IMG/VR virus record: IMGVR_UViG_3300001102_000006 | Source of the DNA: a virus | Reading direction: 5' to 3' (one strand) | DNA length: 64,000 bases | The notes under the pieces: generated by a model | What the model saw: the letters and a program-made list of their open reading frames with translations, nothing else | Databases searched by the model: none | Told to the model about the DNA's origin: nothing | Position numbers and translations under genes: made by a program | Shown: positions 11,944 through 30,619 of the stretch, piece after piece | Layout of the letters: the number at the start of each line of letters is the position of its first letter | How positions within the stretch are numbered: the stretch's first letter is position 1

Positions 11944-14900
11944 TGGCTGAAACACATGAACTCCGATTGAAAATTAACGCGGCTGCCGCTCGTGCTGGCA
12001 GCCGCGAATTCGTCGGTGCGATTGAAAACATCAAGCGCGCGGTAATAGATTTGGAACGTGCCAGTGATGGAACGTTCAAGCGTCTCAGCAAAAATGCACG
12101 TGATGCCGGTAAAGCGGCGAACGTCAAGATTGATGCAGTAGATCGCACTGCTATTCGTAATCTAGATGAATTCGCAAAAATTCAAGCACAAGTTATTCGC
12201 CAAACCGCGACATCGCGCAATGGTCTTACGGGCCTCATGGATGGTCTACGCAATGTTACTGGTGCGTATGCGTCGGCAACCGGGCGCAGTGACGGCTATG
12301 GCACATCCATTACACGCACAAACACGGCGCTGACGCGCCAAGTACAACTCTTGGCACAGATCGCTTCTGCAAGCCGTCGAACAGGCGCGCAGGCGTCCCC
12401 ACAAGCGACCACACAAACAACACAGACTGATCGCGCCGCGCAACAGCAGGTTGCCATGCAGAACCGCGTCAAGCGGGCTGTGGATGACACACGTCTTGCG
12501 ACGGAACGTCTCGTTACGCAGTTGATGAAAGTTGGCGGGTTTAGCCAAATCAACTCTGTCTCTCGTGCGTTTCGCGATTTTCAGAAAGAAGTTTCTCGGA
12601 CATCGGTTACAACAGCGGAATTGGACGCGGCGAAAACGCGTCTGAATTCTTCTATGCGCAACGCGCAAACAGCCGTTGTCACCTTGACTGCAAAAGAGCA
12701 AGAGAATGCACGCGCTACGCGCGAGGCAGCAGCAGCCGCACGTGCGCACGAAGAAGCCGTTCGTCGCCAAAACGCTGCAACACGCGAAGCCGCCACTTCG
12801 GCGCGTCAACAAGCCACCGAAATGGAGCGCCAACAATCTGTTGCGCTGTCAAGCGCGGCTGCCCTGCGGCGTGCATCCGAGGAAACGGCACGCTTGTCTG
12901 AACGCATGCGCCGTATTGGTGATACACGCGGATTGGCTTCTATCAACGCTGCGTTGAATACTTTCCGGACAAATGTCGGCAACGGCGTAACCAGTGCAAC
13001 ACAACTACGTACTGCAATTTCTCAATTCGGTGCGTCAGCTTCTAACGCAAAGATTAGCCTTACTCAAATGGAAGGCACACAGCGCCGTGCGGCTGAAAGT
13101 GCGCGGACATTAGCTTCGCAACAACGGGATGCTGCAAACCAAGCACGCCGCGTTGAGCGTGAGATGCGTTCTGTTGCGGGCGCGTCTAGCGCCGCTTCTC
13201 GCGCTTTCCGTGAAGCTTCTGGCTCTATGCGCGGCATGGAAAATGCTTTCAGCGCTACGTATCAAATTGGTTCCGCGTTCCGTATCCTGATGGGATCGTT
13301 CACCATGGGCACGTTCATTCAGAGCGTGTTCCAAGCCGGTGCGGCTCTTGAACAATTCCGAGTGACAATGGAAGTTGCGACTGGTTCGGTCGCGGGCGCT
13401 GCCGATCAAATGGACTTCATTGACGACATGGCACGTACCTTGGGTACGAACTTGCGCACGGCTCGTGATGACTTTTCGAAGTTTGCCGTTTCCGCGAACT
13501 TGGCGGGCGTTGAAGCGGATACCGCGCGTGGAATTTTCCGGTCAGTATCCTCGGCAATGACTGTTATGGGCCGTGGCGCAGAAGACCAACGACTGGCTTT
13601 TCTTGCGCTAGAACAAATGCTTAGCAAGAACGTGGTATCTTCCGAAGAACTTCGCCGTCAGTTGGGCGAACGTCTTCCGGGCGCTGTGAACTTGATGGCA
13701 CGTGCTGTGGGTGTTTCGACACAAGAATTGAATAAAATGCTGAAAGCGGGTGAGTTGATCTCATCCGAAGTCCTCCCGGCGTTTGCCCGTGAAGTTGACG
13801 CAGCATTTGGTCCCGGCCTCGCCGCATCTCTTGAACGTGCTCCGGCGGCTTTGGGTCGCTTCCGTAACGAACTTGAATTCTTTATGTCTACTGTTGCTGA
13901 CAGTGGGTTCATGACCGCATTGGCAGATGGCTTTGACACACTTACGGAATCTATGCGTTCCGAAGAAATGCAAGATGTTGCGCAGCGCCTTGGTTCGGGC
14001 CTTGCTGATCTGACACAAATTGCCGTTGACTTTGCCGTTGTTTTTGTGGAAAACATTGAAACAGTGGGCCGAGTGGCGAAAGCCGTTGTTGCCGGTCTAC
14101 TTGTCCGTCAATTTGTTTTGCTTGGAAACGCAGTCATTACTTCGGCGCAGCGCGCATCTATTGGCTTCGCAACACTGACCGCAAGTATGGCGGGTAATAA
14201 TGCTGCCGCTCAGTCGAATACGGTGGCCACCGTCGCGAACAATAACGCGCGCCGTTTCAGTGCAGCACAAATTGCAGCAACTTCTGCTGCGTTCGACGTA
14301 AACACCGTTCGCCAAAACCTGAATACTGTCGCCGCTAACACCAACGCAGCCGCACAAACGCGTCTGGGTCGGGCGGTTTCTGTTGCCGGTGCTGCGGCGG
14401 GACGTGCCGGTACTGCGATGGGTGTTGCAACGCGTGTTCTTGGTGGCTTGGCAGGACCAATCGGTCTCGCTGTTACAGCGATCTCACTTCTTCCATTGTT
14501 GTTTGGTGATACGTCAAATGGTGCCGACGAAATGGCGAGCCGTATTGAAGCAGCCATTCGCCGTTCGGGCGCGTCTCTTGAACAGTTTGAACAACAAGCG
14601 CAACGTGCTACAAGCAGCATTCGCCTTCTTCAAACGATTGATGATATCGAAGTTCTTGAAGTTTCTCTTTCGGAATTCCGCCGCACGGCTACCGGTGAGA
14701 TTGATGCGATCAATATGGCGTTCGCTTCTTTGCGTGACGGCACCGAGCTTTCGTTCGACCGCGCACGTTTTGATACGCAACTCATCGAAGGTTTGTTTGG
14801 TCCAGATGCCATTGGTATGCTCAATGATTTGAGCGGGGCAACGCAAGACACTGTACAAGATATTCTGGGTGCCGCACAAGAAGCCATTGAATCCGGAGAA

Positions 14901-17900
14901 GGGTTCCTTGCGCTGCGCGGACGCATTGCAGAAGCGATGTCTGTCAACCCCTCGACCGAAGGTCTGCTGCGCCCAATCATGGAACTTACCGAGCAGCTTG
15001 CCTTGTCTGAGGCCGGTTCTGTACGCCTGCGCGCATCTTTGGTCGATGTTTACGGCTCTGCCGATGACCGCCTGTTGAAAGTGTTCGCAGACACCGCGCA
15101 GACTGTTGTTCAAACTGGTGACGGTGTGGATGATCTCCGTAACCGTATGAACAGCATGATGGGCGACTCGCCGCACTTGGCAGCAGAATTCCAGCAAATC
15201 TTTGATCAAGTTGGAATTGCTTTGCGTACCGGTATGGGCGCAGAAGCCTTTGGAGCAATTGTTTTGGACGTGTTTGACGATAGTGTAAATGCTATTGCCG
15301 AAATGCGTGCTGCAATTGTTGAAACCGAAGCAGACGTTGTTGAAGCGGGGCAGAATATGGGTGGCGCGATTGCCAGCTTTGACTCCCTGCTGCGTAACAG
15401 TTCTTCCTTCCTTCACTTCGGTGAGGGCGTCGTCCAAGAGATTTCTCGGGCGTCCGCCGCGCTTGACAGTTTTGATGATTTCTCTGTGACGCGTGATCGT
15501 TTGGAAGCAGTGTTTGACGGATTTGATTTCCCAACTGCGGAAGCCCGTGAATACGCCGAAGCAGTTATGGCTGGCTTCCGCGATCTTCCAGAAGGTCTGC
15601 AAACATATCAACAACTGAATGGACTGCTTAGCGATCTTGGGGACAATTTCGATCCGGCGGCAACCGAAGCATTTTCGGATGCGATGCGCGCAGGCGCTAC
15701 GGCTGGTCGCGAAAATGCGTTCTCGCTTTCTGACTATATTGACTTGCTCGAAACATACCGCGCCGAAGTAAACTCTGACGGCGCGCGCAATCATATTGAT
15801 AACCTCTTGGCGCAAGCCGAAGTTCTGCGTGTCGCACGTTTGGCGCAGCAAGAAGCTACACACGCGCTCGAAGCAAATACAACTGCTATGCGCGAGAACG
15901 GTGCAGAAGCAAATGCTGCTACTCAAATCATGGCAGCTTACGCTGACATCTACGACCGCGTAGGCAGCGCCGCTACAGAGGCACAGACAGCCCTGTCTAC
16001 GGCTCTTTCGCAGTCTCGTGAGCGCATGGACATTGCAGAGCTTGACGGCGCTGACGCAGCCGTTGCGGGCTACTTTGCAAGCTTCGGTCCCGGTGGTCGT
16101 TTGGTTGCCGCAGCACGCGCCGAAGTCGCGCTTATGCGGGAAGAAGTCACCGCGTTTATGAATGAATCTGGTGGCACCTTGCCAGACGGAGCTATTGCCG
16201 ATCTTCGCGCACAGATCGAAGCGCGCGAGCGTCTTATCGGACAATTTGTTACACAGCAAGAAGCACTGATCCGCGCGCAAAGTGCTGGATCAATCCAAAC
16301 GTCTGACAATGCACTTGTCACTGCTATCCGTGAAGTCAATTCCGTATTGCCTTCTTATTCCTCCGCAACGCAACGTGTTGTGGAAGAAACAATTGCAGCC
16401 GCACGCGCCGCAGCAGATAGCGGCGACGGCTTTATTGAACTCAACGCTCAAATTGATCAAGCACTTGCGAACGCGCCTTCCGCCGCGCCGCTTTTGGAAC
16501 GACTGCAATCTGTTATTGCCGAGTCGGCGCGCACCGAGCAAAGCATTATTGCAACGCGTCTAAGTGCAAACAACTTGTTTGATAATCCTTATGGGGATCA
16601 GGCGTCAGCGGCATTCGCAGAAATGGGCACGCGCGTTGTGAGCGGTTCTGCAACTGTGCAAGACCTGCACGAAGAACTTATGCGTCTTGTGGATGAAGCA
16701 CCACATCTTGAAGAACGTTTGACTTCTATTTTCACAGAAGCCATGAATGCAATGGAGAGTGGTGACGAATCTTTGTTCTTGTCCCGCATTGTTGACTTGG
16801 TTGATCAATCAGGTGTTGAGCTTGCACGTTTGCGTGAAGAAGCACGCATGACCGCTGTAGCGGCAGACGACGCCGCGATCACTTTCGCCAATTCTTTCCA
16901 AGACGTTCTTGGGACGCTTCAAGAAGTTTCTGGCGATCAAACAGGCGGTATCAACCTTGGAATCAGCGAAGCTGATATCATTCTTCTTACACAAGCAACG
17001 GCAGAATTCCAGCGCTTGAATGACACGGCTGTGTCGGTGAATGAATTGGGTGCGGTCCTTGACGGCCTTTCCTTCCCAAGCGCAGAAGCACGCAACTTTG
17101 CGACAGCGTTGACCGAGCAGTTCTCGGCGCTGCCTGCCGGGCAACAAAATTACGCAAACCTCAATGCGATCATGTTGGAGCTTGGTCGGTCGTACCCAAC
17201 GATTGAAGGTTCTGAATTCTTGGACCTTCTGCGTCAATCCGTATCCGAAGGAACCGCAGCAGGTGAAACAGCGGCTGCGTACATTTCCCGCCTTGAGGGC
17301 ATCCGAGACTCGATGCCTAACTCGGAATTGCGCGAATTGATCCAAGGCTTGATCGACGCAGCGACCGCAAAACGTGACGCGGCCCAAGCGGCGGCGCAAG
17401 CCGAAGGCGCGATTATTGGTGCAGGTAACGCCGCACAGACAGCCGGTTCTCAAGCGTCCGGCGCAGCGGCTGGTTTCTATCAACTGGCAGCAGCAGCCAA
17501 CGCGGCGTTTTCGGCAATCGCTAACGTCACCGCAAACGTAGGCTCTGCTATGGCTGATGCGTCTGCTCGCCTACAACGCGAAATCGAAATCACAGGCATG
17601 TCGGATCGTGACGCATTCGTCGCGCGCCGTACCGATGGCTTGGCTTCACGTCTCCAAGCAGAGGCGGATGCGGCGCGCGCGGCTGTGCAAGCACTGGCAG
17701 ATGGAACTCCGGCGCGTGCCGAAGCTGAGCTTGAATTGAACCGGGTTCTGAATGAACAAGCCGGAGCGTTGTCTGGTGTTCGTAACGAGGCTGGACTTCT
17801 ATTTGATGCCCAAGAGGCAGCACGCGCCGCCGCGTCGGCAGCAAGTGGCGGGTCCGGTGGTTCTGGCGGCTCTGGTTCTGCTGCGGAGCTTAGTGCCGAA

Positions 17901-19217
17901 GCCGAAGCGTTGAAAACGTTGACCGAGGGTGTCAATCAACACATCAACTCTTTGAACGCGCAAAACATTGCATACTCTCTTTTGATTACGCGTCAGACTA
18001 CTTCTGAAACGGCAGCCCGTACTTTGGGTGAAGCTATGGCGGCGGGTGTCGAGCTTACGGAAGAACAGACACGTGCAATCATCGAACAAGCCGAAGCCGC
18101 AGAACGTTTGAATGAACAACTGAGCATTCTGGCAAACGATCCGGTCAACGCATGGATGGATAGCGTACCAAGCTGGATCGAAGCCGGACAGCAAATCGAA
18201 GAAAGTGCAATCCGCGCTGTTTCCGACAGCTTCAAAGAACTTTTGAAGACTGGTGAATTCAGCATGGCAGCACTGGCTCAAACAATTATCGGTGCAGCGA
18301 TTGACATTGTTGCAGACAAGGCAGTCAAAGGTTTGATCGGCCTTCTGGGCGGAAACATTTCTGGTCAGGGTGAAGGTGGTTTCGGTCTCGGCGGATTGCT
18401 GGGCGGGCTGTTTGGTGGCGTCGATGAAAGCGGACCAACTTCTGTATTCGGGGGCGGCGCAGAGGGCGGTACTGAGGCGGCAATGATCCAAGCGGCATTC
18501 ACAACCGGTGGACAACAAGCGGCGACCCTGATCCAACAAGCGCTGGCGACAGGTGGACAACAGTTGGGTATGCAAACGCAGCAAGGCATGACGCAGGGCG
18601 GCATCCAAGCACAGCAACAAATCCAAATGGGTCACCAGCTTGGTGGTAGCCAAGCGGGCATCCGCGTTCGTACCGCACACTCTACCGGTGGTTCTACTGT
18701 TGGAATTCGTACCCGTCTGGCACACGTTCAAGGCGCGAACAGTCTGCGTCAGGGCGTTCAAACTGGTGCCGAAATCGGTGGCTCGATCATGGCAGGCAAA
18801 ATTCAGACCGCTTCGGCGGGCGCTGGCGGCGGAGGAATGGGCGGCTTCGGCGGAATTTTTGGAAGCCTGCTCGGGCTGTTTTTCTCAGAAGGGGGATTGA
18901 CAAGCGATCCTTCTCCTGTTAATACTCCAACGCATCTGCCTATGGACATGTTCAAGAATGCGCCGCACTTTGCGGAAGGCACCACGAACACTTCCGGTAT
19001 CCCTGCGATCCTGCATGACAACGAAGCGGTTGTTCCGCTGTCTAAAGGACGCAAGATTCCGGTGGACATGGGCGGCGAAGGCGGCAGCGGGAAGACGACA
19101 GTGATCAATCAAAACATCTCCATCGAATCTCCAACTCCGCGCGAATTCAACAACTCCCGCACCCAGATTGGTAGCACTCTGCGTCGTGCGGCCTCTCAGG
19201 GACAGCGGATTGATTGA
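11943..19217 (+). CDS. Tape measure protein
   Basis: 2424 aa, Ala-rich helical; tape-measure core ALEQMLSKNVVSSEELRRQLGERLPGA; C-terminal FAEG...IPAILHDNEAVVP. Confidence 0.95.
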   Translation: MAETHELRLKINAAAARAGSREFVGAIENIKRAVIDLERASDGTFKRLSKNARDAGKAANVKIDAVDRTAIRNLDEFAKIQAQVIRQTATSRNGLTGLMDGLRNVTGAYASATGRSDGYGTSITRTNTALTRQVQLLAQIASASRRTGAQASPQATTQTTQTDRAAQQQVAMQNRVKRAVDDTRLATERLVTQLMKVGGFSQINSVSRAFRDFQKEVSRTSVTTAELDAAKTRLNSSMRNAQTAVVTLTAKEQENARATREAAAAARAHEEAVRRQNAATREAATSARQQATEMERQQSVALSSAAALRRASEETARLSERMRRIGDTRGLASINAALNTFRTNVGNGVTSATQLRTAISQFGASASNAKISLTQMEGTQRRAAESARTLASQQRDAANQARRVEREMRSVAGASSAASRAFREASGSMRGMENAFSATYQIGSAFRILMGSFTMGTFIQSVFQAGAALEQFRVTMEVATGSVAGAADQMDFIDDMARTLGTNLRTARDDFSKFAVSANLAGVEADTARGIFRSVSSAMTVMGRGAEDQRLAFLALEQMLSKNVVSSEELRRQLGERLPGAVNLMARAVGVSTQELNKMLKAGELISSEVLPAFAREVDAAFGPGLAASLERAPAALGRFRNELEFFMSTVADSGFMTALADGFDTLTESMRSEEMQDVAQRLGSGLADLTQIAVDFAVVFVENIETVGRVAKAVVAGLLVRQFVLLGNAVITSAQRASIGFATLTASMAGNNAAAQSNTVATVANNNARRFSAAQIAATSAAFDVNTVRQNLNTVAANTNAAAQTRLGRAVSVAGAAAGRAGTAMGVATRVLGGLAGPIGLAVTAISLLPLLFGDTSNGADEMASRIEAAIRRSGASLEQFEQQAQRATSSIRLLQTIDDIEVLEVSLSEFRRTATGEIDAINMAFASLRDGTELSFDRARFDTQLIEGLFGPDAIGMLNDLSGATQDTVQDILGAAQEAIESGEGFLALRGRIAEAMSVNPSTEGLLRPIMELTEQLALSEAGSVRLRASLVDVYGSADDRLLKVFADTAQTVVQTGDGVDDLRNRMNSMMGDSPHLAAEFQQIFDQVGIALRTGMGAEAFGAIVLDVFDDSVNAIAEMRAAIVETEADVVEAGQNMGGAIASFDSLLRNSSSFLHFGEGVVQEISRASAALDSFDDFSVTRDRLEAVFDGFDFPTAEAREYAEAVMAGFRDLPEGLQTYQQLNGLLSDLGDNFDPAATEAFSDAMRAGATAGRENAFSLSDYIDLLETYRAEVNSDGARNHIDNLLAQAEVLRVARLAQQEATHALEANTTAMRENGAEANAATQIMAAYADIYDRVGSAATEAQTALSTALSQSRERMDIAELDGADAAVAGYFASFGPGGRLVAAARAEVALMREEVTAFMNESGGTLPDGAIADLRAQIEARERLIGQFVTQQEALIRAQSAGSIQTSDNALVTAIREVNSVLPSYSSATQRVVEETIAAARAAADSGDGFIELNAQIDQALANAPSAAPLLERLQSVIAESARTEQSIIATRLSANNLFDNPYGDQASAAFAEMGTRVVSGSATVQDLHEELMRLVDEAPHLEERLTSIFTEAMNAMESGDESLFLSRIVDLVDQSGVELARLREEARMTAVAADDAAITFANSFQDVLGTLQEVSGDQTGGINLGISEADIILLTQATAEFQRLNDTAVSVNELGAVLDGLSFPSAEARNFATALTEQFSALPAGQQNYANLNAIMLELGRSYPTIEGSEFLDLLRQSVSEGTAAGETAAAYISRLEGIRDSMPNSELRELIQGLIDAATAKRDAAQAAAQAEGAIIGAGNAAQTAGSQASGAAAGFYQLAAAANAAFSAIANVTANVGSAMADASARLQREIEITGMSDRDAFVARRTDGLASRLQAEADAARAAVQALADGTPARAEAELELNRVLNEQAGALSGVRNEAGLLFDAQEAARAAASAASGGSGGSGGSGSAAELSAEAEALKTLTEGVNQHINSLNAQNIAYSLLITRQTTSETAARTLGEAMAAGVELTEEQTRAIIEQAEAAERLNEQLSILANDPVNAWMDSVPSWIEAGQQIEESAIRAVSDSFKELLKTGEFSMAALAQTIIGAAIDIVADKAVKGLIGLLGGNISGQGEGGFGLGGLLGGLFGGVDESGPTSVFGGGAEGGTEAAMIQAAFTTGGQQAATLIQQALATGGQQLGMQTQQGMTQGGIQAQQQIQMGHQLGGSQAGIRVRTAHSTGGSTVGIRTRLAHVQGANSLRQGVQTGAEIGGSIMAGKIQTASAGAGGGGMGGFGGIFGSLLGLFFSEGGLTSDPSPVNTPTHLPMDMFKNAPHFAEGTTNTSGIPAILHDNEAVVPLSKGRKIPVDMGGEGGSGKTTVINQNISIESPTPREFNNSRTQIGSTLRRAASQGQRID

Positions 19218-19840
19218 TGTTCATTGAAGAACGGTTTCCTGCATATATCTCAGATGGCGCGACGGTACAACTCTTTCGCGCCATTACGAGCGTCCCGCTT
19301 CGCTCGGGCTTTGAACGTCAAAAGAATGTGTGGGCACAGTCCCTAAGACGTTACAATGTGTCCAGTGGAATTCAGACGTTCGATGATCTGATTGTGACAA
19401 ATAATTTCTGGTATCGCACATATGGACCCCGCATCGGGTTCCGGTGGCACGACCCATCCGACTACAATTCCACTGACACTCAGCGCGAAAAAGTAAACGC
19501 CAACGACCAAATTCTGGGCATTGGCGATGGAACTGAAACAGATTTTCAGTTGCGCAAAGGTTATATGAGCGGCACGGATACTTACTACCGTGACATCACA
19601 AAGCCAGTCGCGGGGACTGTCTTGGCGGCGGTAAACGCCACACCCACAACAGCTTTTTCCATTGACACAACCACAGGAATTGTGGTATTTGATACACCCC
19701 CACCGAATGGGGCACTTGTTACGGCTGGGTACCAATATGATGTACCTGTTCGTTTCGAAAAAGAAACCCTTGAAATGAATGTTTCGCACTTTGATGGCGG
19801 CGACATTCCTGACATCGAAGTCGTAGAGATCATCGTCTGA
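19217..19840 (+). CDS. Distal tail protein 1 (DUF2460, GTA g12-like)
   Basis: F.EERFP, SG.E.....W, GFRW.D..DY, G.GDG....FQL.K.Y, R.ITKPVAGTV, AGY.YDVPVRF. Confidence 0.88.
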   Translation: MFIEERFPAYISDGATVQLFRAITSVPLRSGFERQKNVWAQSLRRYNVSSGIQTFDDLIVTNNFWYRTYGPRIGFRWHDPSDYNSTDTQREKVNANDQILGIGDGTETDFQLRKGYMSGTDTYYRDITKPVAGTVLAAVNATPTTAFSIDTTTGIVVFDTPPPNGALVTAGYQYDVPVRFEKETLEMNVSHFDGGDIPDIEVVEIIV

Positions 19841-20553
19841 TGTTTCGTGAAATCCTTTTTCCTGTTTGCATCTCTTATGATGCCGTAGGGGGTCCTTACT
19901 GGCCCACCGATGTTGTGCGCCTCAAAAGTGGTGTAGAGCACCGCAATCAACCGTGGAGTCACCCCATCCGAAAGTATTCGGTTGATCTTTCTGATCACGA
20001 CCGTACAGATATTTTGGAGTTCATTGACTTCTGGGAAAACCAACAAGGTACTGAGTTCGGTTTTCGGTGGAAAGACTGGATCGACTTTACTTCCGGAACT
20101 GCCTACGACAATATAACTGGCTCAGACGAACAGCTTGCCGATGGTGATGGTTCTTCTACGGGCTTTCAGTTGATCAAAACCTATCCCGGCGGTTCGGTCA
20201 GAAAAATCCTAAAGCCAGTAAAAGGTACGATTGTCGTTACAGTGAATGGCGGCGCACCTTCGGGCGATGTCGTCTGCGACACGACAAATGGAATTGTGTT
20301 CTTTGAGAATGCCCCCGCCAATGGGGCGACAGTTCGCGCTGGATTTGAATATGATGTTCCGGTGCGTTTTTCGGAATCTTCGGTTGGGTTTAACCTTGAA
20401 GATTTCCAACAAGGCAATGTTTCAAATCTGGATATCGAAGAAATGCGTATCGACCCAGATTTTACAAGCCTTGCAACCCAAGGGCTTATCGCTGATTACT
20501 TCGCGGGAAGTATTCCGTCTTCCTCGCTGCCCTCTACAATTTCGGTGGTCTGA
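19840..20553 (+). CDS. Distal tail protein 2 (DUF2460 paralogue)
   Basis: Same motif series: SGVEHRNQPW, GFRWKDW.DF, GDG....FQL.K.Y, KPV.GT, AGFEYDVPVRF. Confidence 0.88.
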   Translation: MFREILFPVCISYDAVGGPYWPTDVVRLKSGVEHRNQPWSHPIRKYSVDLSDHDRTDILEFIDFWENQQGTEFGFRWKDWIDFTSGTAYDNITGSDEQLADGDGSSTGFQLIKTYPGGSVRKILKPVKGTIVVTVNGGAPSGDVVCDTTNGIVFFENAPANGATVRAGFEYDVPVRFSESSVGFNLEDFQQGNVSNLDIEEMRIDPDFTSLATQGLIADYFAGSIPSSSLPSTISVV

Positions 20554-21386
20554 TGTCTGAAACAACTCTTTGCTTCCTGTGGCGTGTCGAACGTCAAGAC
20601 GGCTTTGTGATCCGGGCTACGGACCACAATGAACCTGTTACCTTCCAAGCGGAAACCTACTTGCCTACGATTGGCATCAATACGACGAAAGTCGTTCAAA
20701 AGCTCGGACTGGGTGTGGACAACCTCGAAGTTTCTGGCGCGCTGGACGGAGAACTCATCACGGAACCTGACATTGACGCAGGCTTCTATGACGGCGCTAC
20801 TGTCGATATCTACATCGTCAATTGGCAAGCTCCCGACACAGACCCGCAGCATAAAGTCCACGGCACATTCGGAAACGTGTTCCGAACAGAGCTTGGATAC
20901 ACCACAGAAATTCGCTCACAAGCATACATTCTTTCGCAAGAGACGGGGCGCACTTTTCAGCGCACATGCGATACAAAGCTGGGCAGCCTTGCTTGCGGAA
21001 TCAACTTGAACCAAGCTGCCTATCGTCTGCAAACCGCATCCGTTTTGACAAGCGATCAAGGCTTGCTCACAATTTCAGGTGCAGATGGTTTTGACAATGA
21101 GTGGTTTTCTCTCGGTCTGCTCGAAACAGTTGAGGGATACAAGTACGGTATTCGGAAACACACCGGCACCGAGATCGATCTATGGGCACCGCCTTCGGTT
21201 GAGATTGAAGTGGGGGACACCGTAACCCTCTTTGCCGGATGCAAGCAAGACGCTGAGACGTGCCGGGTTAAGTTTGATAACATCATAAATTTTCAAGGTT
21301 TTCCGTTTATGCCGGGTAACGATGCCTTGTCAAACTATCCTGTTTCAGGCACGGACAACTATGATGGACGGAGCTTGTTCCAGTGA
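20553..21386 (+). CDS. Baseplate hub protein (DUF2163/BR0599, GTA g13-like)
   Basis: W...R.DG....TDH, GL.VDNLEV.GAL, C...LG...C, GC.....TC..KF.N..NF.GFP.MPG. Confidence 0.9.
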   Translation: MSETTLCFLWRVERQDGFVIRATDHNEPVTFQAETYLPTIGINTTKVVQKLGLGVDNLEVSGALDGELITEPDIDAGFYDGATVDIYIVNWQAPDTDPQHKVHGTFGNVFRTELGYTTEIRSQAYILSQETGRTFQRTCDTKLGSLACGINLNQAAYRLQTASVLTSDQGLLTISGADGFDNEWFSLGLLETVEGYKYGIRKHTGTEIDLWAPPSVEIEVGDTVTLFAGCKQDAETCRVKFDNIINFQGFPFMPGNDALSNYPVSGTDNYDGRSLFQ

Positions 21387-21838
21387 TCACACGCGATGAA
21401 ATCGTCACGTCCGCACGGTCGTGGATTGGTACACCATACAAACACCAGTTCTCTGTCAATCAGGCGGGCTGTGATTGCTTGGGACTGATCCGTGGCGTTT
21501 ACCGTGAGAACATTGGAGAAGAACCTGAGAAAGCTCCGGCGTACTCTCCTTCTTGGGGCGAGGCGGGACGCAAAGAATTGATGCTGGAAGTCGCACACAA
21601 GCACCTCGTGAAAAGCGAAAGTGATGTACTTCTTCCGGGACAAGTTCTTTTCTTTCGCATGCGTGAAGGAATGATGGTCAAGCACTGTGGCATTGTTGGC
21701 AAGGCACCCACTGACGCGGACAATCCCGGTACGATGATCCACGCATACAACACAGTCGGCGGTGTGGTCGAGCATGGAATTGTGCCCTTTTGGACGCGCA
21801 AGCTGGTAGAGGTCTTTGACTATCCGGGTGTCGTGTAA
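21383..21838 (+). CDS. NlpC/P60 cell-wall peptidase (GTA g14-like)
   Basis: ARSWIGTPY.HQ, GCDCLGLIRGV, KHCGI, MIHAY. Confidence 0.92.
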   Translation: MITRDEIVTSARSWIGTPYKHQFSVNQAGCDCLGLIRGVYRENIGEEPEKAPAYSPSWGEAGRKELMLEVAHKHLVKSESDVLLPGQVLFFRMREGMMVKHCGIVGKAPTDADNPGTMIHAYNTVGGVVEHGIVPFWTRKLVEVFDYPGVV

Positions 21839-22455
21839 TGGCAACAGTTCTTGTAGGCATTGGTCTTAGCGCTACCGCTGCGTCGGTCGTAACCTCGGTT
21901 GCGATCTCTGTGGGCTTGGGCCTTGTCTATCAGGCGCTTGCTCCACCAGTCACCATCGAACAAGAAGGTGCGCAGCTTGAATCGGCGCGCATCTCGTCAT
22001 CGACCGAAGGTACTGCAATGTCCCGCATACGCGGGCACATGCGTCTGGGCGGTCAGTTGGTTTGGGCAACCCGGTTCCAAGAAACAATCATTACGTCTAC
22101 CACGTCATCCGGCGGTAAAGGCGGGGGACCGAAAACCAGTACAACAACCACTGAATATTTGTACAGCAGTTCCTTTGCGTTTGCGCTTTGTCAAGGCAGC
22201 GAAAATCTACAACTTCTCAAAGTTTGGGCGGATGGTAAGCGGTTGGACCTTGGTGATTTCACGTATCGTTTTTATCCGGGGTCAAACACACAGGCAATTG
22301 ATTCTTTGATCGATACTATCGAGGGAACAGGAACGGTCCCAGCTTTTCGGGGTGCTGCGTATATCATTTTCGAAGAAATGCCCCTTAAAGATTACGGAAA
22401 CCGAATTCCACAAATCACATGTGAACTTTACAATCCGGTGCTTACAGCACCTTAA
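21838..22455 (+). CDS. Stand-alone N-terminal module of megatron / host-specificity protein
   Basis: 205 aa collinear with residues ~1-203 of the next gene (SSSTEG, R.GGQ..WATRF, WADGK, VPAFRG, YGNRIPQI); own TAA stop. Confidence 0.85.
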   Translation: MATVLVGIGLSATAASVVTSVAISVGLGLVYQALAPPVTIEQEGAQLESARISSSTEGTAMSRIRGHMRLGGQLVWATRFQETIITSTTSSGGKGGGPKTSTTTTEYLYSSSFAFALCQGSENLQLLKVWADGKRLDLGDFTYRFYPGSNTQAIDSLIDTIEGTGTVPAFRGAAYIIFEEMPLKDYGNRIPQITCELYNPVLTAP

Positions 22456-22464
22456 AGGCAAATA

Positions 22465-25400
22465 ATGGCGTCAATTCTAGTAGGTGCAGGGCTTAGTGCA
22501 GCAGCCGCGTCAGCGGTCACTTCGGTGGCTGTTTCCGTTGGTCTTGGCTTGCTGTATCAGGCGCTGTCGCCGCCGGTAAATATTGAACAGGAAGGCAGCC
22601 GCCTAGAATCCACTCGAATTTCTTCTTCGACGGAAGGTGCAGTGATGCCGCGTACGCGCGGCTGGATGCGTATGGGCGGTCAGATGATCTGGGCTACGCG
22701 GTTCCGTGAGGAATTTGTGACCTACACAACTACTGTTGGTGGTGGTAAAGGCGGCGGCGGCAAGAAACAGACCATCACTGTTTCTGAATATTTGTATTAC
22801 TGCTCCTTCGCTGTGGCGTTCTGTGAAGGTTCGGAATGTACGCGCTTTGCACAATTGTGGGCAGATGGAAAGCCTCTCGATCTGTCCGAAGTCACGCACC
22901 GGTTTTATCCCGGAACAGCCACGCAGGGCATTGACCCTCTTATCGACTCTATCGAAGGTCCCGGAACTGTGCCCGCTTTTCGCGGCGTGACATACATTGT
23001 TTTCGAAGACATGTTGTTGAAGGATTACGGCAACCGCATTCCACAAATCAACGGTGAGATTGTTCGACCAATTCTCGAAACGACTTACGGCGTAGATCGG
23101 ATGGAAGACGCGCTGAAAGCTATTCAGCTAATCCCGGCTTCTGGTGAGAAGATTTACGGGACACGCATCTACACACAAGATGATGATGGTAGCGGCGAAT
23201 CCAAGAGCATCAATCAGCACGCTTCATCCGAAAAAGCGGACTTAGTAGTCTCTCTCGATACGCTCGATAACGATTGTATTGGCATTGATTCGATGTCTTT
23301 GGTTGTTTCTTGGTTTGGCAGTTCAACGGATGCGGGGCGTTGCCGCATTGAACCAAAGTCCGAGCGCAAAACCGGTAGCGTCAGCCCAGAAGAATGGAGC
23401 ATTGCAAACCAGACACGCACTAATTTGGAAGTTGTGTCTTACATTGATGGCCCACAAACGAATTGGACGATTACCGGCCCACTGACAACATTAGACTTCC
23501 GCATCTATAGTGAGTCGTCTATAGAACTTACGTCGCCATTTCCCCCCTTTGACACGTTCATTCAAACGAGTGAAACGTCTTCGGCGTCCTTCTCGGCACC
23601 GGGAGATTTTACGGATGGCGAAACGCTCGCGGCGGCGATTAACAGAGCATTTGAAGATGAAGAAACAAAATGTAACGCACGTTGGTACCCAGATTTCGAC
23701 ACACTGGAATTGAATGATTATAGCGAGCTTGGTAATCTGAAAATCGAGTTCAATAATTCTGATCCAAATGCAACCGTGTACAATTTTGATTTCAACGATC
23801 CTCCGGGGTCGCCTGTTTACGGTGGAACACCTTCGGACATTAGTGTTCGGGAAGCCATGCAAAATATCAAAGGACGCGGCTGGCGCGCATTGTTCTATCC
23901 GTTTATTCTGATGGACATGGCACGCTTCCCGTGGCGCGGTCGTATTGAGGCGGACACTGTTGCGGACACAAATACGTTTCTAGGAACAGTTACTCCGGCG
24001 CATTTTTCTCTTGTGTCGGGCAAGGTCAACTATACTGGACCAGCGGATGAATGGTCACAGCGGCGAATGATTCTGCATTACGCGACACTGTTGTCTGATA
24101 TCATGCAGCCCGGTGACGCGTTTGTTGTTGGAACCGAGATGCGGGGCATGTCGGAATCAAACAACGCGTGGGCCAATGGTCTTGTCACACTTCTCGCAGA
24201 TGTGCGTACAATTCTCGGACCCGGTGTTCTTGTGAGCTATGCTGCGGACTGGTCAGAATACCAACAGCCGAGCTTGAGCGTTCTTTGGGATGTCGCAGAC
24301 TTTGTGGGGATCGATAACTATCTGCCGCTGACAGACTGGCGCGACGGTGATGAAGTTTACACCATCGAAGAATTTCAAGCCGGTGTTGAGGGCGGGGAAT
24401 ACTACGACTATTTCTACGCGTCCGATGCAGATCGACAAGCGAATATTCGTTCGCCAATCACGCAGCCGCAGTTTCGGCAAAAAGACATCCGTTATTGGCA
24501 ATCGGTGAATCATCCGACCAAGCCCGTTTGGTTTACAGAATTTGGCGCACCCGCCGTTGATAAAGGTGCGAACCAGCCAAACGTTTTTGTTGACGCTAAG
24601 TCGGTTGAATCGTTCTTGCCATATTTTTCAAACGGACAGCGGAATGACCTTGTACAGAAATTGTACTATGAGGCGACGTTGGACTACTGGAAGAATGTAG
24701 CTCCATCTCCATACATTGATCCAGCAAATATGTTTGCGTGGACTTGGGACGCGCGCCCTTATCCCGCCTTCCCGGCGCTGGTGGATGTGTGGTCAGACGG
24801 GCCGAACTGGGAAGTAGGGCACTGGCTCAACGGTCGCTTGGATCAGGTGATTCTACCGGATCTTGTTCAAGAGCTTTGTCTTGAGGCAGGTATTCCAGAA
24901 GAAAACATCGACATTACAGGTCTTCTGAACGCCATTGTAATTGTGCGTGGCATGTATGTATCTAGTCTATCAAACACACGACAAATCCTTGAAAACCTCA
25001 TGGAAACTTTCATGTTTGATGCGGTTGAGGATGGAGATAAACTACGATTTATCACACGTGGCGACCACAACGTTGTGACTATTTCCACGGATGACTTCAT
25101 CCTGACAAACGACGCGGAGACTTTTGAGAAGACTCGTATCTCTGATCCTGAACTTCCCGACCGAACAAAGATTTCGTTTTTGGATGAATCACGCGCGTAC
25201 GCGGTTGGTTCGGTAGACGGACACACCCGTACCGGGCTTTCGCGCAAGGTCAATCAATTCACCACCATTTGTGTCATTGATCAAAGCTACGCTAAGGGCG
25301 TTGCAGATGTGATGACGCAACAGGCGTGGATTGCGCGGGACTCCGTTAAATTCTCCTTGCCGGTGTCATACATTCATTTGAAGCCCGGTGACTTGTTCAC

Positions 25401-26520
25401 GGCGTCTCTGCCCAATAGCCGCCTGATGGTCTTCAAACTGATTGAAGTAAACTTTGGAGATCAGTTAGATGTAGAAGCGGTTGCGGTGGACCCGTCTATC
25501 TATGAACTGGTCACACACTCATACTTCACTCCAAATTATGAATCTCCCGAAGTGTTCGGGCCGACGCTCGCCGTTTTCCCAGAAGTACCGTTGTTCATTA
25601 ACGATGCACCACAAAATAATTGGTCGCCGCGTATTGTCGCTTATCAATCACCATGGCCGCGAAATGTTGATGTTTATGAAGATGACCTTCTAGGTGAGGG
25701 CAGCTTTGATCTGAATACGACGATTGCCAATACGTCGATCATTGGAGAACTTACAGCAGGTCTTGCACCACCAAATCGCGTGGAAGTCTGGGACAACGCC
25801 AACGAAGTTCGTCTTCGAATTTATGACGCGGCGCAAACCTTGTCTCCGGCAAATGATCTCGCTGTTCTAAATGGCGCAAATCCGCTCGCAGTATTGACTC
25901 CGAGCGGCGAATGGGAGATACTACAGTACGTCAATGCGTCAATGACGGGCGCAGATACATATACGCTTTCGCGTCTTCTTCGCGGGCAGCTTGGAACAGA
26001 GAAGTACATTGGTGATCCCACACCCGCAGGTTCCAGAATTTTTGTGGCGGATCAACGTACTTACGGATATCTCGAAGGAACAAATGCACGTTTGAATATC
26101 CCCCGCGACTATCGGTATGGACCGCGCGGAGTTAATCTGAACGATGAACGCTTCCAACAGATTGAGATCACGCCCCGTGGCGTAGCATTGCGCCCTTATG
26201 CTCCGGTCCACTTGAAGCAGTTCCGTGACCCGATCAGCGGCGACATTGAGCTTACGTGGCTCCGGCGCACACGATTTAGCGGGGACAATTGGCAGTTCAC
26301 CGATGTTCCTCTAAACGAAGATCAAGAAGAATACGAAATTGATATTCGTGATGGAATTACTGTTCTTCGTACCATTCTTGTGGGAAGCAACAACACTTAC
26401 ACATACAGTCTATCCGACCAGATTTCAGATTTCGGTGCAGGTCAAATGAACATCGACTGGACTGTATATCAAATGAGCGCTCTTTACGGGCGCGGCTCTC
26501 CGGGAGTTAGCTTAATCTAA
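22465..26520 (+). CDS. Megatron / host-specificity tail-tip protein with GTA TIM-barrel domain (g15-like)
   Basis: YGGTPSD, FYPFILMD, RRMILHYA, SYAADWSEY, GIDNYLPLTDWRDG, WFTEFG.PAVDKGANQPNVF, WTWDARPYP, GHWLNGR; C-terminal LSRLLRGQLGTE. Confidence 0.92.
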   Translation: MASILVGAGLSAAAASAVTSVAVSVGLGLLYQALSPPVNIEQEGSRLESTRISSSTEGAVMPRTRGWMRMGGQMIWATRFREEFVTYTTTVGGGKGGGGKKQTITVSEYLYYCSFAVAFCEGSECTRFAQLWADGKPLDLSEVTHRFYPGTATQGIDPLIDSIEGPGTVPAFRGVTYIVFEDMLLKDYGNRIPQINGEIVRPILETTYGVDRMEDALKAIQLIPASGEKIYGTRIYTQDDDGSGESKSINQHASSEKADLVVSLDTLDNDCIGIDSMSLVVSWFGSSTDAGRCRIEPKSERKTGSVSPEEWSIANQTRTNLEVVSYIDGPQTNWTITGPLTTLDFRIYSESSIELTSPFPPFDTFIQTSETSSASFSAPGDFTDGETLAAAINRAFEDEETKCNARWYPDFDTLELNDYSELGNLKIEFNNSDPNATVYNFDFNDPPGSPVYGGTPSDISVREAMQNIKGRGWRALFYPFILMDMARFPWRGRIEADTVADTNTFLGTVTPAHFSLVSGKVNYTGPADEWSQRRMILHYATLLSDIMQPGDAFVVGTEMRGMSESNNAWANGLVTLLADVRTILGPGVLVSYAADWSEYQQPSLSVLWDVADFVGIDNYLPLTDWRDGDEVYTIEEFQAGVEGGEYYDYFYASDADRQANIRSPITQPQFRQKDIRYWQSVNHPTKPVWFTEFGAPAVDKGANQPNVFVDAKSVESFLPYFSNGQRNDLVQKLYYEATLDYWKNVAPSPYIDPANMFAWTWDARPYPAFPALVDVWSDGPNWEVGHWLNGRLDQVILPDLVQELCLEAGIPEENIDITGLLNAIVIVRGMYVSSLSNTRQILENLMETFMFDAVEDGDKLRFITRGDHNVVTISTDDFILTNDAETFEKTRISDPELPDRTKISFLDESRAYAVGSVDGHTRTGLSRKVNQFTTICVIDQSYAKGVADVMTQQAWIARDSVKFSLPVSYIHLKPGDLFTASLPNSRLMVFKLIEVNFGDQLDVEAVAVDPSIYELVTHSYFTPNYESPEVFGPTLAVFPEVPLFINDAPQNNWSPRIVAYQSPWPRNVDVYEDDLLGEGSFDLNTTIANTSIIGELTAGLAPPNRVEVWDNANEVRLRIYDAAQTLSPANDLAVLNGANPLAVLTPSGEWEILQYVNASMTGADTYTLSRLLRGQLGTEKYIGDPTPAGSRIFVADQRTYGYLEGTNARLNIPRDYRYGPRGVNLNDERFQQIEITPRGVALRPYAPVHLKQFRDPISGDIELTWLRRTRFSGDNWQFTDVPLNEDQEEYEIDIRDGITVLRTILVGSNNTYTYSLSDQISDFGAGQMNIDWTVYQMSALYGRGSPGVSLI

Positions 26521-28223
26521 TGCCAGCAAATCTTGCACTACATGATCTCGTATATGACCTTTGCCTTGAAGGAGGACTTCCTTCGGCAAATATCGACGTG
26601 TCTGATCTCGAAAACTTTACTACCGAAATTCCGGGTATACACATTTCAAGTGTTGTAAATGCGCGTCAAGTTCTAGAAAACCTGATGGAAACATATTTGT
26701 TTGACGCCATCGAAGACGGCAGTTTTGTGCGCTTCATTCGGCGCGGAAATCACAACGTTGAGACAATTCCGCCAGATGATTTTCTTCTGGACGACAATGC
26801 GCAGACGTACGAAAAAACGCGTGTTCAGGATGTAGAGCTACCTGACCGAACAAAAGTTTCTTTTTCCGATCCAACGCGGGACTACAATGTTGGTTCGGTT
26901 GATGGGCATACAGTTACAGGTCTGTCATCCACGGTGAAGCGTTTCACCACAATTTGTGTGATGAATCAAGGATACGCAAAGGGTCTTGCTGACGCGATGA
27001 CCCACCAAGCTTGGATTGGGCGGGACTCTGTTAAAATGTCCCTTCCAATCACGTATCGACACTTGAAGCCCGGTGATACGTTTGCTTTCGCTGTGGAAGG
27101 CTCGCCACAGAAGTCTTACAAAGTAGCCGAGATTACAATCGGAGCACAGGTAGATATTGACGCGGTTGCGGTATCTCTGCGCATTGATGAGATTGTCGAG
27201 CACGTAGATGATCCCGGATACGATGTTACACCTGTTGTTTTTGGATCGAGCCGAATTGTGTTTGCGGACATTCCCTTGCTAAACAACGATCTGCCTGAAA
27301 GTAATTGGTCGCCACGCGTTGTAGCGCAGCAAAATCCTTGGCCCGGTGGTGTGTCCGTGTACCAAGATGATTTTCTGGGTGGCTACAATCTGAATACTGT
27401 TGTCCCCGTGCCTTCAATCATCGGTGAACTGACCGCGCCTCTGCAAAGTGGCGTCACTGGTATTTGGGACGAAGCGAACACCGTCCAACTGCAATTGTTT
27501 GATGCCGCCCAGTCACTTTCTCCGGCAAATGATCTCGCTGTTCTTAACGGTGCCAATCCGCTGGCGGTATTGACTCCGAGTGGCGAATGGGAGATACTAC
27601 AATTCGTGAACGTGGATATTACGGGCGCGGACACCTACACGCTTTCTCGTCTTTTGCGCGGACAACTTGGTACTGAGTTTTATATGGGTGAGCCGACACC
27701 GGCTGGCTCCATTGTTTTCTTGGCCAACCCGTTGGCCTATAGCGTGCTTGAGGGCAGCAATGATCAGATTGGTATAGAACGCACATACCGTTACGGTCCT
27801 TCTAACAAAGATTTTACGGATACCACGTATGATGACATCAATGTAACGGCGCGTGGTGTCGCGATGCGTCCATACTCTCCCGTACATCTCAATCAAGCCA
27901 AGCAGTCTAATGGAGATATCGATCTCTCTTGGATTCGCAGAACACGCTTCGACGGGGACGCATGGGTGAACGGCACTATTCCGTTGAACGAAGAATTCGA
28001 GCGATACGAAATCGACATCTTGGACGGCCCGTTTGGTTCGGGAGCAGTTGTGAGAACTATGACAGTTAATGTTACGGTGTTCACAACAGATTCTCCCGGC
28101 ATAACGTACACAGAGGCCCAGCAGATTACAGATTTTGGATCGGCACAAACATCGGTGAACTGGGTTGTATACCAGATTAGTGCTCTTGTCGGGCGCGGGA
28201 CACCGGGAGTAGGTACCCCTTAA
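26520..28223 (+). CDS. Stand-alone C-terminal module of megatron (paralogue)
   Basis: 567 aa collinear with residues ~795-1351 of the preceding gene (DLV..LCLE.G, ELPDRTK, GSVDGHT, LSPANDLAVLNGANPLAVLTPSGEWEILQ). Confidence 0.88.
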   Translation: MPANLALHDLVYDLCLEGGLPSANIDVSDLENFTTEIPGIHISSVVNARQVLENLMETYLFDAIEDGSFVRFIRRGNHNVETIPPDDFLLDDNAQTYEKTRVQDVELPDRTKVSFSDPTRDYNVGSVDGHTVTGLSSTVKRFTTICVMNQGYAKGLADAMTHQAWIGRDSVKMSLPITYRHLKPGDTFAFAVEGSPQKSYKVAEITIGAQVDIDAVAVSLRIDEIVEHVDDPGYDVTPVVFGSSRIVFADIPLLNNDLPESNWSPRVVAQQNPWPGGVSVYQDDFLGGYNLNTVVPVPSIIGELTAPLQSGVTGIWDEANTVQLQLFDAAQSLSPANDLAVLNGANPLAVLTPSGEWEILQFVNVDITGADTYTLSRLLRGQLGTEFYMGEPTPAGSIVFLANPLAYSVLEGSNDQIGIERTYRYGPSNKDFTDTTYDDINVTARGVAMRPYSPVHLNQAKQSNGDIDLSWIRRTRFDGDAWVNGTIPLNEEFERYEIDILDGPFGSGAVVRTMTVNVTVFTTDSPGITYTEAQQITDFGSAQTSVNWVVYQISALVGRGTPGVGTP

Positions 28224-30619
28224 TGACTTTTTCCCCCAACCTTGGTCTAGATTATGTGCAGTCGTCTCAGGCGCAAAAGCACATAACAATGAATGAGGCA
28301 CTGTCCAAATTGGACGTGCTTGTTCAGCCTGTGGTTGAAGACCTTGACTTTTCTAATCCTCCGGGGTCTCCGGTTGAAGGTGCCAGCTATATTGTTGCGT
28401 CACCGGCTGGCGGCGTGTGGGCAACACATGAAAATGACATTGCCTCCTATTTGAATGGTTCTTGGGTATTTTATACGCCAAAACAAGGCTGGCGTGTTTA
28501 CGTTCTTGACGAAGATACACCCTATGATTTTGACGGCACGGATTGGGTAATCAAGTCGATTACATCGACAGCATTATCTAACGGTTCCCTTTTGGAGCTT
28601 GGTGTCAATTCCGGCACAACGCCTGACAACCGTCTTTCAGTCAAATCCAACAACGTTCTATTCAGTCACGATGATGTTACTCCGGGAACGGGTAGCATGA
28701 ATACGACCATAAATAAAGCTTTGTCGGGTGACGCGGCTTCGATTACATATCAGGTTGGATTTTCTGGTCGAGCTATTGTCGGTCTTCTGGGGAACGACGA
28801 TTACACCGTTCGTGTGTCTGATGATGGCACCACGTTCAACGATGCTTTCGTTGTAGACGGCACAACTGCGAAGACTGATTTTAAGGTTCTGCCAAGCGTA
28901 AACGGCGACGATTTCTGGCATGAGGGAAATGATGGCGCAGGCTCTGGTCTCGACGCCGACCTTCTTGACGGGCAGCATGCATCGGACTTTGCACAATTGT
29001 CCGGAGCTACGTTCACGGGCGGCATTACCGCAACTGGATTTACCGGCAACGGCGGCGGACTGACTGGTGTCAACGCGGACAATTTGGGTGGTCAGGCGGC
29101 GTCTTCTTATGCGCTTCTATCTGGCGCAACATTTACCGGAACAGTTGAAGCTACAAACTTTGTGGGGGATGGTTCGTCTCTAACGGGTGTAACAGCTACC
29201 ACACTGGGCGGGCAGCCTGCCAGCGCTTACGCGCTTCTATCTGGTGCGACATTCACGGGCGGCTTGGCGCAGCAAATGGCTTCCCCGTCTCTGGTCTTGG
29301 AAACTACCGAAGTTTCGGGCGAGCAATCCTATTTCAAAATGGAAGGTGCGCGCACGTCAGTGTCCGCCACCATTGCCCAGATCGATTTTTACAATAATGG
29401 TACTGGTGTCGAAGGTACATCGGCCCAGTGGCTTATTGGTGGCGATGGTGACGTAAACCTCGCGATTGGGCAGTTGCAGGTTGCGGGCGGGGAAGTTTGG
29501 CACGCAAACAATGACGGCGCTGGATCAGGTTTGGATGCCGATCTATTGGATGGCAATCAGGCTTCTGCTTTTGCACAGCTTTCCGGTGCGGCGTTTACAG
29601 GCGGAGTCTCTGCGACCGGTTTTACTGGTAACGGTGGTGGCCTCACGGGGGTCAATGCCACAAACTTGGGCGGACAGTCGGCTGCGTCATACGCGCTACT
29701 GGCTGGGGCAACATTTACTGGAACAATTGATGCTCCTGTTGTCCGCGTTAGCGGTGATGATGTTTGGCATGAAGGAAACGATGGACCGGGATCGGGACTA
29801 AACGCCGACCTGTTGGATGGTGTACAGGGGGCAGCTTTCGCGCAACTGTCCGGAGCTACATTTACTGGAAACATCGTAAACACGTCCAGCCAAACACTTC
29901 TCGGAGAATTGGGTGTAGGCGGCGCGACACCAGACGCTACAAACAAGTTTGCGTTTTTTGGTACTGATCTTTTGCTTAATTCGAGCAGCAGTATCAACAT
30001 GAAATATAACAAAAACGCCGCCGCGAACGATGCGTCGATGACGTTTCAGACCGGCTTCACCACTTATGGTTTGTTCGGACTTCTTGGGAACAACGACACC
30101 ACACTGAAAGTTGGAACTGGGTTTGTTTCTGCGCTTATTGCGAATAATACCGATGGGACAATGCAATTCCCAGAAGGTGTAAAGCATGATGCAGTGACAG
30201 CATACAAGAACACTAACCAAACTTTGACTACATCTTGGGCAACAGTTACAGGATACGATGGGACGCATATCGCAGCTAGTGGTAATCTTTCGTGGAACGG
30301 AACAAATGGTGACGCCTTTGTTGGTAAAGCGGGCCGGTTCCAAGTATCGTACACCGTGTCAACGGAAATCAGCACCGGTTCAGCGCGTACAGACAGTTTG
30401 GCCCGACTTGAGAGATGGACGGGGGCGGCGTGGGTTGAAGTCGAGGGTACCACACACCGCATGTACAACCGTATTGCTGGACGCGGGGGGTCTTGCGCGA
30501 GCGCTACCGTGGTACTTGATGTAGCCGCATCCGATGGCTTCCGAATCGCCGCTCGAATTGAAACTGGAACAGACACAGTAATTGTGGATCAAGCCGCACT
30601 TTCAATTCTACGGCTGTAA
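28223..30619 (+). CDS. Tail fibre protein (N-terminal DUF2793, internal repeats)
   Basis: L.L.Y....QAQKH.T.NEAL..LD.LVQ; WHxxNDGxGSGLxADLLDG x3; L(S/A)GAxFTG x6. Confidence 0.85.
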   Translation: MTFSPNLGLDYVQSSQAQKHITMNEALSKLDVLVQPVVEDLDFSNPPGSPVEGASYIVASPAGGVWATHENDIASYLNGSWVFYTPKQGWRVYVLDEDTPYDFDGTDWVIKSITSTALSNGSLLELGVNSGTTPDNRLSVKSNNVLFSHDDVTPGTGSMNTTINKALSGDAASITYQVGFSGRAIVGLLGNDDYTVRVSDDGTTFNDAFVVDGTTAKTDFKVLPSVNGDDFWHEGNDGAGSGLDADLLDGQHASDFAQLSGATFTGGITATGFTGNGGGLTGVNADNLGGQAASSYALLSGATFTGTVEATNFVGDGSSLTGVTATTLGGQPASAYALLSGATFTGGLAQQMASPSLVLETTEVSGEQSYFKMEGARTSVSATIAQIDFYNNGTGVEGTSAQWLIGGDGDVNLAIGQLQVAGGEVWHANNDGAGSGLDADLLDGNQASAFAQLSGAAFTGGVSATGFTGNGGGLTGVNATNLGGQSAASYALLAGATFTGTIDAPVVRVSGDDVWHEGNDGPGSGLNADLLDGVQGAAFAQLSGATFTGNIVNTSSQTLLGELGVGGATPDATNKFAFFGTDLLLNSSSSINMKYNKNAAANDASMTFQTGFTTYGLFGLLGNNDTTLKVGTGFVSALIANNTDGTMQFPEGVKHDAVTAYKNTNQTLTTSWATVTGYDGTHIAASGNLSWNGTNGDAFVGKAGRFQVSYTVSTEISTGSARTDSLARLERWTGAAWVEVEGTTHRMYNRIAGRGGSCASATVVLDVAASDGFRIAARIETGTDTVIVDQAALSILRL

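Follow-up and report, generated by a model that had tools for sequence, protein, structure and literature searches.

The DNA considered here is a 64,000-nt one-strand stretch of an uncultured siphophage genome (IMG/VR record IMGVR_UViG_3300001102_000006; hereafter the window, with positions counted from its first letter), whose tail module, of the type found in gene transfer agents (GTA), spans 9.4 kb to 31.7 kb. Within this module lie three genes of the megatron family, the large baseplate protein known as g15 in the gene transfer agent RcGTA. The middle gene, termed Full (22465..26520, + strand), encodes a complete g15-like megatron of 1351 aa. It is preceded by an N-module gene, termed N (21838..22455, + strand, 205 aa), assigned the iris/penetration helix and an adhesin-like domain, and followed by a C-module gene, termed C (26520..28223, + strand, 567 aa), assigned the central, distal-tail-binding domain and the fibre-binding domain. 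Below, N' denotes residues 1-204 of Full and C' the end of Full that is homologous to C (797-1348). The 64-kb window contains no further copies of the megatron gene.

The two flanking proteins correspond to the two ends of Full. In BLASTP comparisons N is 65% identical to Full 1-204 (E 5e-77), and residues 7-564 of C are 56% identical to Full 797-1348 (E 0), leaving Full 205-796, the peripheral/TIM-barrel domain, without a counterpart in either. Corresponding motifs mark both edges of this gap, ELYNPVL/EIVRPIL at the front and LHDLVYDLCLEGG/LPDLVQELCLEAG at the back, and the coordinates given in an earlier note on this DNA are exact and the likeness to the megatron ends that it described is confirmed. 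Pfam recognizes GTA_TIM (530-770), Phage-tail_3 and Rcc01698_C in Full and the last two, without GTA_TIM, in C; it matched no domain in N and gave nothing useful for Full 205-530. On the NCBIfam model GTA_megatron (NF048004, 1299 positions), N covers positions 13-204 and C positions 759-1294. The curated cutoff of this model, 800 bits, applies to the score of a whole protein; Full exceeds it at 1107 bits, whereas N and C, at 199 and 389 bits, do not reach it because each spans only part of the model. It also follows from these spans that the missing part is the whole peripheral domain rather than the TIM barrel alone, so the earlier description of the flanking genes as a megatron minus its TIM barrel was right about the barrel and too narrow about the extent of the loss.

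Solved structures give these limits a physical meaning. The g15 protein of RcGTA is divided into iris/penetration (1-46), adhesin-like (47-229), peripheral (230-744), central (745-984) and fibre-binding (985-1304) domains (PMC7296036), and the megatron of roseophage R4C has matching limits, with the adhesin-like domain extending to residue 211 and the central domain starting at 904 (PMC10276861). Full matches both (PDB 6TBA/6TEH and 8GTC) and contains all five RcGTA domains, laid out as N' (1-204), the peripheral/TIM region (205-796) and the central plus fibre-binding part (797-1351). N holds the first two of the five and C the last two, and neither includes the peripheral domain. Matched directly to RcGTA g15, N covers residues 27-202 (E 9e-33) and C residues 769-1259 (E 6e-56). 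As judged by these alignments, the breaks between N, the missing part and C are the structural domain boundaries of RcGTA and R4C. By the same matches, N should therefore be the channel-closing, pore-forming end of a megatron, and C the part responsible for docking to the distal tail ring and for attaching the fibres.

The arrangement is not peculiar to one assembly. The order N (205 aa), Full (1333-1345 aa) and C (562-567 aa) recurs in the Logan contigs L004, L010 and L011, and in L005 N and Full are present before the contig ends. These metagenomic contigs come from different samples. The N orthologues of L004, L005 and L010/L011 are all 205 aa long, with the stop at the same ...AP position in 4/4 relatives, and C orthologues are 91% and 69% identical to C of the window. 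Over this clade of nested loci, protein identity to the window runs from 94% down to 69%, a difference of 6-31% across four independent assemblies. Outside the clade, a megablast search of GenBank phages with the module found no match, and N or C, used singly as queries against IMG/VR and JGI metagenome contigs, yielded one distant match and otherwise nothing. Stand-alone N-like matches outside the clade were unusable, those of L007 and L008 lying in fragmented, error-prone sequence and that of L006 being cut 92 bp past the gene; P0033, a candidate stand-alone C, has its start 30 bp from the end of its contig and was likewise set aside.

Ratios of nonsynonymous to synonymous substitution rates (dN/dS, or omega) were computed between the window and L010, whose orthologues are 91-94% identical. 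For N, dN was 0.05 and dS about 1.3, giving an omega of 0.03-0.04; for C, dN was 0.05 and dS 1.5-1.9, giving an omega of about 0.03. The corresponding ends of Full gave 0.014 (N') and 0.02 (C'). Because dS exceeds 1 and approaches saturation, all of these omega values are rough, which tells against leaning on their exact size, yet they are far below 1. Amino-acid conservation across orthologues is equal for N and C and for N' and C', and the fastest-evolving part of the megatron in these comparisons is the peripheral region. We conclude from this comparative evidence that N and C are intact genes maintained by selection, in agreement with the earlier opinion that they are not decaying fragments.

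The paralogues themselves (N and N', C and C') share only 60-65% of their nucleotides, with synonymous sites near saturation. Differences fixed between them, judged against the sister phage L019 described below, are symmetric (16 vs 13 for C, 5 vs 4 for N) and evenly spread, and there is thus no sign of one paralogue degenerating or specialising in one domain. The best-conserved region between C and C' is the fibre-binding core. Over codons 334-360 of C (window 27519-27599, compared with 25837-25917) all 27 residues are identical to C', synonymous identity is raised, and there are exact runs of 24 nt and about 20 nt. This patch could reflect a small gene conversion or strong constraint in the family-wide GEWEILQ motif; beyond this single short patch, lying in a motif conserved across the family, no recent conversion between C and C' was detected.

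The genes are tightly packed and synonymously diverged, as the earlier note had it. The junctions between the g14-like peptidase gene and N, between Full and C, and between C and the fibre gene are all TAATG stop/start overlaps, and N is separated from Full by a 9-nt spacer with an AAGG motif, where L004 has AGGAG. Read from their spacing, these junctions suggest one translationally coupled operon. Three other schemes for relating the genes were rejected. Readthrough of the N stop codon into Full would be in frame in the window, L004 and L010 and is out of frame in L005; recombination excising Full to fuse N with C would need homologous repeats at positions where there are none; and the fibre gene is not a plausible source of the N-terminus of C, since the L004 orthologue lacks such likeness.

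A natural counterpart to N plus C exists in other phages as one polypeptide. Outside the clade, the proteins closest to C are 742-780 aa long (P0021, P0022 and P0024-P0032) and carry Phage-tail_3 and Rcc01698_C and no TIM domain. They begin with an N-like region, with about 6 residues between the N- and C-homologous parts (P0021/P0022), and are 50-57% identical to N and C, which together total 772 aa. These short megatrons are the only megatron of their phages and occupy the same gene slot (L009, L012); we found no description of such TIM-less forms in the literature. By this homology, N and C jointly are the known single-chain, TIM-less architecture broken at a domain boundary. Short and long megatrons are intermixed in the trees, and the peripheral domain must therefore have been lost or gained repeatedly. 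Among about 100 loci scanned, 81 have one long gene and 4 have one short gene, and the nested layout occurs only in the clade of the window.

There is also some indication from modelling that the two proteins bind one another. A complex prediction for C with N, using a 12-row alignment for each, scored 0.65, as against 0.00 for the best of 3 controls; a score of 0.65 is reached by 58 of 80 solved complexes and by 2 of 110 mismatched pairs. Separate runs agree in at least 63% of contacts, and the predicted local distance difference test value (pLDDT) of the partner is at least 63. Contacts predicted with confidence join N 60-70 to C 37-44 and place N 196-205 on C 2-16, and the ends of the two chains meet as they do in the short single-chain forms. 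The prediction thus supports N-C binding.

On these grounds it is probable, with considerable room for doubt, that N and C serve as structural proteins and together form a TIM-less, two-chain megatron produced beside the long form. The proposed sequence of events would begin with an in-place partial duplication of both ends of an ancestral megatron gene, leaving three megatron-family genes in the tail-tip operon. N would have retained the iris helix, which forms the pore, and the adhesin-like domain, which closes the tail channel; C would have retained the central domain, which attaches to the distal tail ring, and the domain that holds the fibres. Translated from the same operon message, as their close or overlapping starts and stops suggest, the two would associate non-covalently through a strand of N (about residues 60-70) and a strand of C (about 37-44), with the C-terminal tail of N lying on the first helix of C. 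Such a pair would amount to a short megatron in which the peripheral TIM-barrel domain is missing, equivalent to the single chain of about 750 aa in related phages, and two baseplate cores would then be made, one with and one without a glycosidase-like peripheral domain. Homology, conservation and the model make pairing of N with C the most likely arrangement, and the pair would presumably be incorporated into virions. As to what follows, the balance tips slightly toward the two cores competing for the same site, in which case tips would be dimorphic or mixed, differing in whether they bear the glycosidase-like lobe. The earlier inference of a two-chain megatron lacking the TIM barrel has therefore gained in silico backing, in that the domains add up, single-chain equivalents exist and binding is predicted; the picture of a split gene is not supported, for reasons given with the trees below.

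Several points weigh against this interpretation. N and C are known here from genes alone and not as virion proteins, and it is not obvious where a second megatron would fit in the canonical three-fold baseplate. The N-C score may be a memory of solved structures (6TEH, 8GTC), because in the RcGTA and R4C megatrons these same parts touch within one chain, and the prediction does not discriminate pairing of N with C from pairing of N with C'. Moreover, all of the nested loci belong to one clade, so the nested layout represents a single evolutionary origin.

An alternative that we regard as possible, if on the unlikely side, is a single enlarged heteromeric baseplate in which every virion carries Full, N and C, the N-C pair being an obligate extra layer. 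Three Full and three N-C units, for example, would provide six fibre-binding domains, matched to two distal-tail paralogues arranged as alternating subunits or as two stacked rings. What lends this idea interest is that the distal tail protein is duplicated as well. The window encodes two such proteins of the DUF2460 family, the first resembling RcGTA g12 (19214..19840, + strand, 208 aa; Pfam DUF2460 E 1.6e-57) and the second directly following it (19840..20553, + strand, 237 aa; E 2.3e-57). The two share 37% identity, less than either shares with the single L019 copy (43% for the first, 43-45% over the pair). Two DUF2460 genes were found in 4 of 86 DUF2460 loci, all four from the nested clade, in addition to the window, and nowhere else among them; the duplication is thus confined to exactly the clade that has N and C genes. 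Of the RcGTA distal-tail subunits, the odd ones touch the hub and the even ones the megatron central domain (PMC7296036), and the duplicated parts are therefore interaction partners; two paralogues could fix such an asymmetry. N and C are, in addition, constrained as much as N' and C', and the region best conserved between C and C' is the one that binds fibres, of which the phage has one gene only. Against this stand three observations. The shared occurrence of duplicated DUF2460 and of N and C counts as one phylogenetic event, for which reason the co-duplication is a lead only; the hub (g13) and peptidase (g14) genes are not duplicated; and the solved baseplates leave no room in the ring beneath the distal tail protein, which three hub and three central domains already occupy. 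The specific version in which three long and three two-chain short megatrons co-assemble in each virion, templated by the paired distal-tail paralogues, is doubtful, but were it true, fibre-binding sites and pore-forming helices would both be doubled, and the siphophage tip would have expanded its symmetry through duplication of the interacting modules alone.

It is improbable that N and C act separately rather than as the TIM-less pair favoured here. N might then be an extra channel plug, a membrane-pore subunit or an assembly factor, and C an extra fibre adaptor, or either could be a non-virion assembly or exclusion protein. Their genes lie 4 kb apart with different translational coupling partners, and the modules have parted company in at least one unrelated phage. 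There (L100 3439-8242) three genes encode an N-module fused to a Vgb_lyase-like beta-propeller (513 aa), a protein of 487 aa of unknown kind, and a stand-alone C-module of 551 aa with a homologous start boundary (MPDLRSIVFDLC...), upstream of a DUF2793 fibre gene; the propeller takes the place of the TIM barrel, and a full-length copy is absent. N and C modules can therefore have separate fates. However, the N-C interface is predicted with high confidence relative to controls, natural single-chain N+C proteins exist, and both end duplications fall on the same branch of the trees.

The trees, built from 37-39 sequences, bear directly on how the nested layout arose. Central to them is P0141, the single full-length megatron (1329 aa) of the sister phage L019, which has in common with the window a long tape measure protein (2413 aa) and the neighbouring genes, and which lacks N and C genes and has a single DUF2460 gene. 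One clade unites N, N' and the N-part of P0141 (support 100/99) and another C, C' and the C-part of P0141 (100/100), and the orthologue topology is the same within each paralogue group. Since this sister phage has a single full-length gene, the ancestral gene was also full-length, and the two end duplications map to one branch close to the split from L019. By this phylogenetic reasoning N and C are in-lineage paralogues that arose by partial duplication of both ends of a full-length gene and not by fission, and the earlier picture of a split gene nested around a copy finds no support. The fine branching argues for some restraint, in that the orders among N/N'/L019 and among C/C'/L019 are not fixed (approximately unbiased test, p 0.32 and 0.37).

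Another history, the nested split gene taken literally, seems improbable; in it an ancestral short N-C gene was split by the insertion of a full-length megatron gene from another phage. Short megatrons are common among the nearest relatives, and N groups weakly with L019 and not with N' (91/85). On the other hand, N' and C' are no closer to other known megatrons than N and C are, all of them grouping with L019 in a single clade; the nearest outgroup has one copy, of full length; and an insertion exactly at the domain junction, with creation of a new stop and start, would need as many illegitimate joins as two end duplications. Finally, the suggestion that N and C are decaying duplicate fragments or an assembly artefact, prompted by the fact that duplication debris, like collapsed or expanded repeats, usually appears as partial copies beside a full copy, is already contradicted and can be set aside as extremely improbable, given frames, lengths and the ...AP stop position conserved in four independent assemblies, a dN/dS of about 0.03, and a paralogue nucleotide identity too low for mis-assembly of copies.

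Comparison with known systems places the locus, with its end-duplicated megatron, in context. The RcGTA counterpart (Rcc01698/g15; PDB 6TBA/6TEH, NF048004) has the same domain order, and the gene order g12-g13-g14-g15-fibre is also the same. RcGTA has one g15, forming a three-fold baseplate as the earlier note had stated (PMC7296036), and one g12, whereas the phage of the window has extra genes for the two ends of g15 only and a duplicated g12. Roseophage R4C, also a siphophage, builds its baseplate from three hubs, three megatrons and nine fibre proteins (PDB 8GTC; PMC10276861). Its domain limits match the boundaries of N and C but, unlike the window, it has a single megatron gene with an extra carbohydrate-binding insert and no partial paralogues. 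The short megatrons of L009 and L012 have the domain content, gene slot and nearly the length of N plus C, but each is one polypeptide and the sole megatron of its phage.

Tandem megatron-like paralogues follow the NlpC/P60 gene in giant Caulobacter and Brevundimonas phages of the phiCbK type, much as the duplicated genes do in the window, and in all phages of this type in the search two places matched. The two proteins of CcrColossus, gp122 and gp123 (L002 5156-12344), are sister paralogues in both trees; both are full-length (about 1198 aa), however, with no end-only copies and no nesting. L100 shares with the window a stand-alone C-module before a DUF2793 fibre but differs in its propeller-fused N-module, its intervening 487-aa gene and its lack of a full-length copy. 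We found no description of split or duplicated megatrons in the literature. The N-Full-C layout is thus an unusual yet not unprecedented case of tail-gene tinkering.

The megatron baseplate, as in RcGTA and the roseophages, is a type of tail tip that is ecologically widespread and whose structure was solved recently. The locus shows that evolution can take a megatron apart at its domain boundaries, and that the peripheral glycosidase-like domain is dispensable, having been repeatedly lost or swapped. One phage lineage appears to have stably retained a long form and a putative two-chain short form together with duplicated distal-tail proteins. Should both forms occur in virions, the result would be a natural baseplate dimorphism or symmetry expansion bearing on host range, and the junction between N and C would offer a ready-made split site for engineering megatron-type tips.

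The tail module opens with genes for a tail tube protein, a chaperone and the tape measure protein (11943-19217). The last of these, at 2424 aa, implies an unusually long tail; the tape measure proteins of L019 and L004 (2417 aa in L004) are of similar size. After the two DUF2460 genes come a single-copy baseplate hub protein resembling RcGTA g13 (20553..21386, + strand, 277 aa; Pfam Phage_phiJL001_Gp84_N and Phage_BR0599) and a g14-like NlpC/P60 tail peptidase (21383..21838, + strand, 151 aa; Pfam NLPC_P60 E 7e-6). The megatron genes therefore lie where a megatron is expected, after DUF2460, hub and NlpC/P60 and before the fibre. The tail fibre gene, with a DUF2793 N-terminus (28223..30619, + strand, 798 aa; Pfam DUF2793 E 4e-29), is followed by a gene for an Amidase_2/SH3 endolysin.

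Between the distal tail and hub genes, L012 and L019 carry large extra genes (L012 1748-4453, 901 aa; L019 5755-8742, 738 and 253 aa) for which Pfam gave nothing useful; in the clade of the window this slot holds the second DUF2460 gene. Other megatron genes with interrupted frames were encountered as well. In a 130-kb bacterial contig with a GTA-like cluster (L101 4671-8665), the megatron is encoded by a 777-aa gene (N plus TIM) and a 554-aa gene (C) that overlap by 4 nt, with a TTG start; either a genuine split or a frameshift in a noisy assembly could account for this. In two IMG/VR contigs (L074 4446-8384 and L038 5646-9608) the megatron gene is broken by a single in-frame stop, which could be a sequencing error, a pseudogene or a case of stop-codon recoding. 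Lastly, the window contains a 27-nt direct repeat (23798-23824 and 28356-28382, 85% identical) encoding DF..PPGSPV.G, with one copy in the peripheral region of Full and the other in the N-terminal DUF2793 part of the fibre, and the likeness may be due to a shared motif or to chance.

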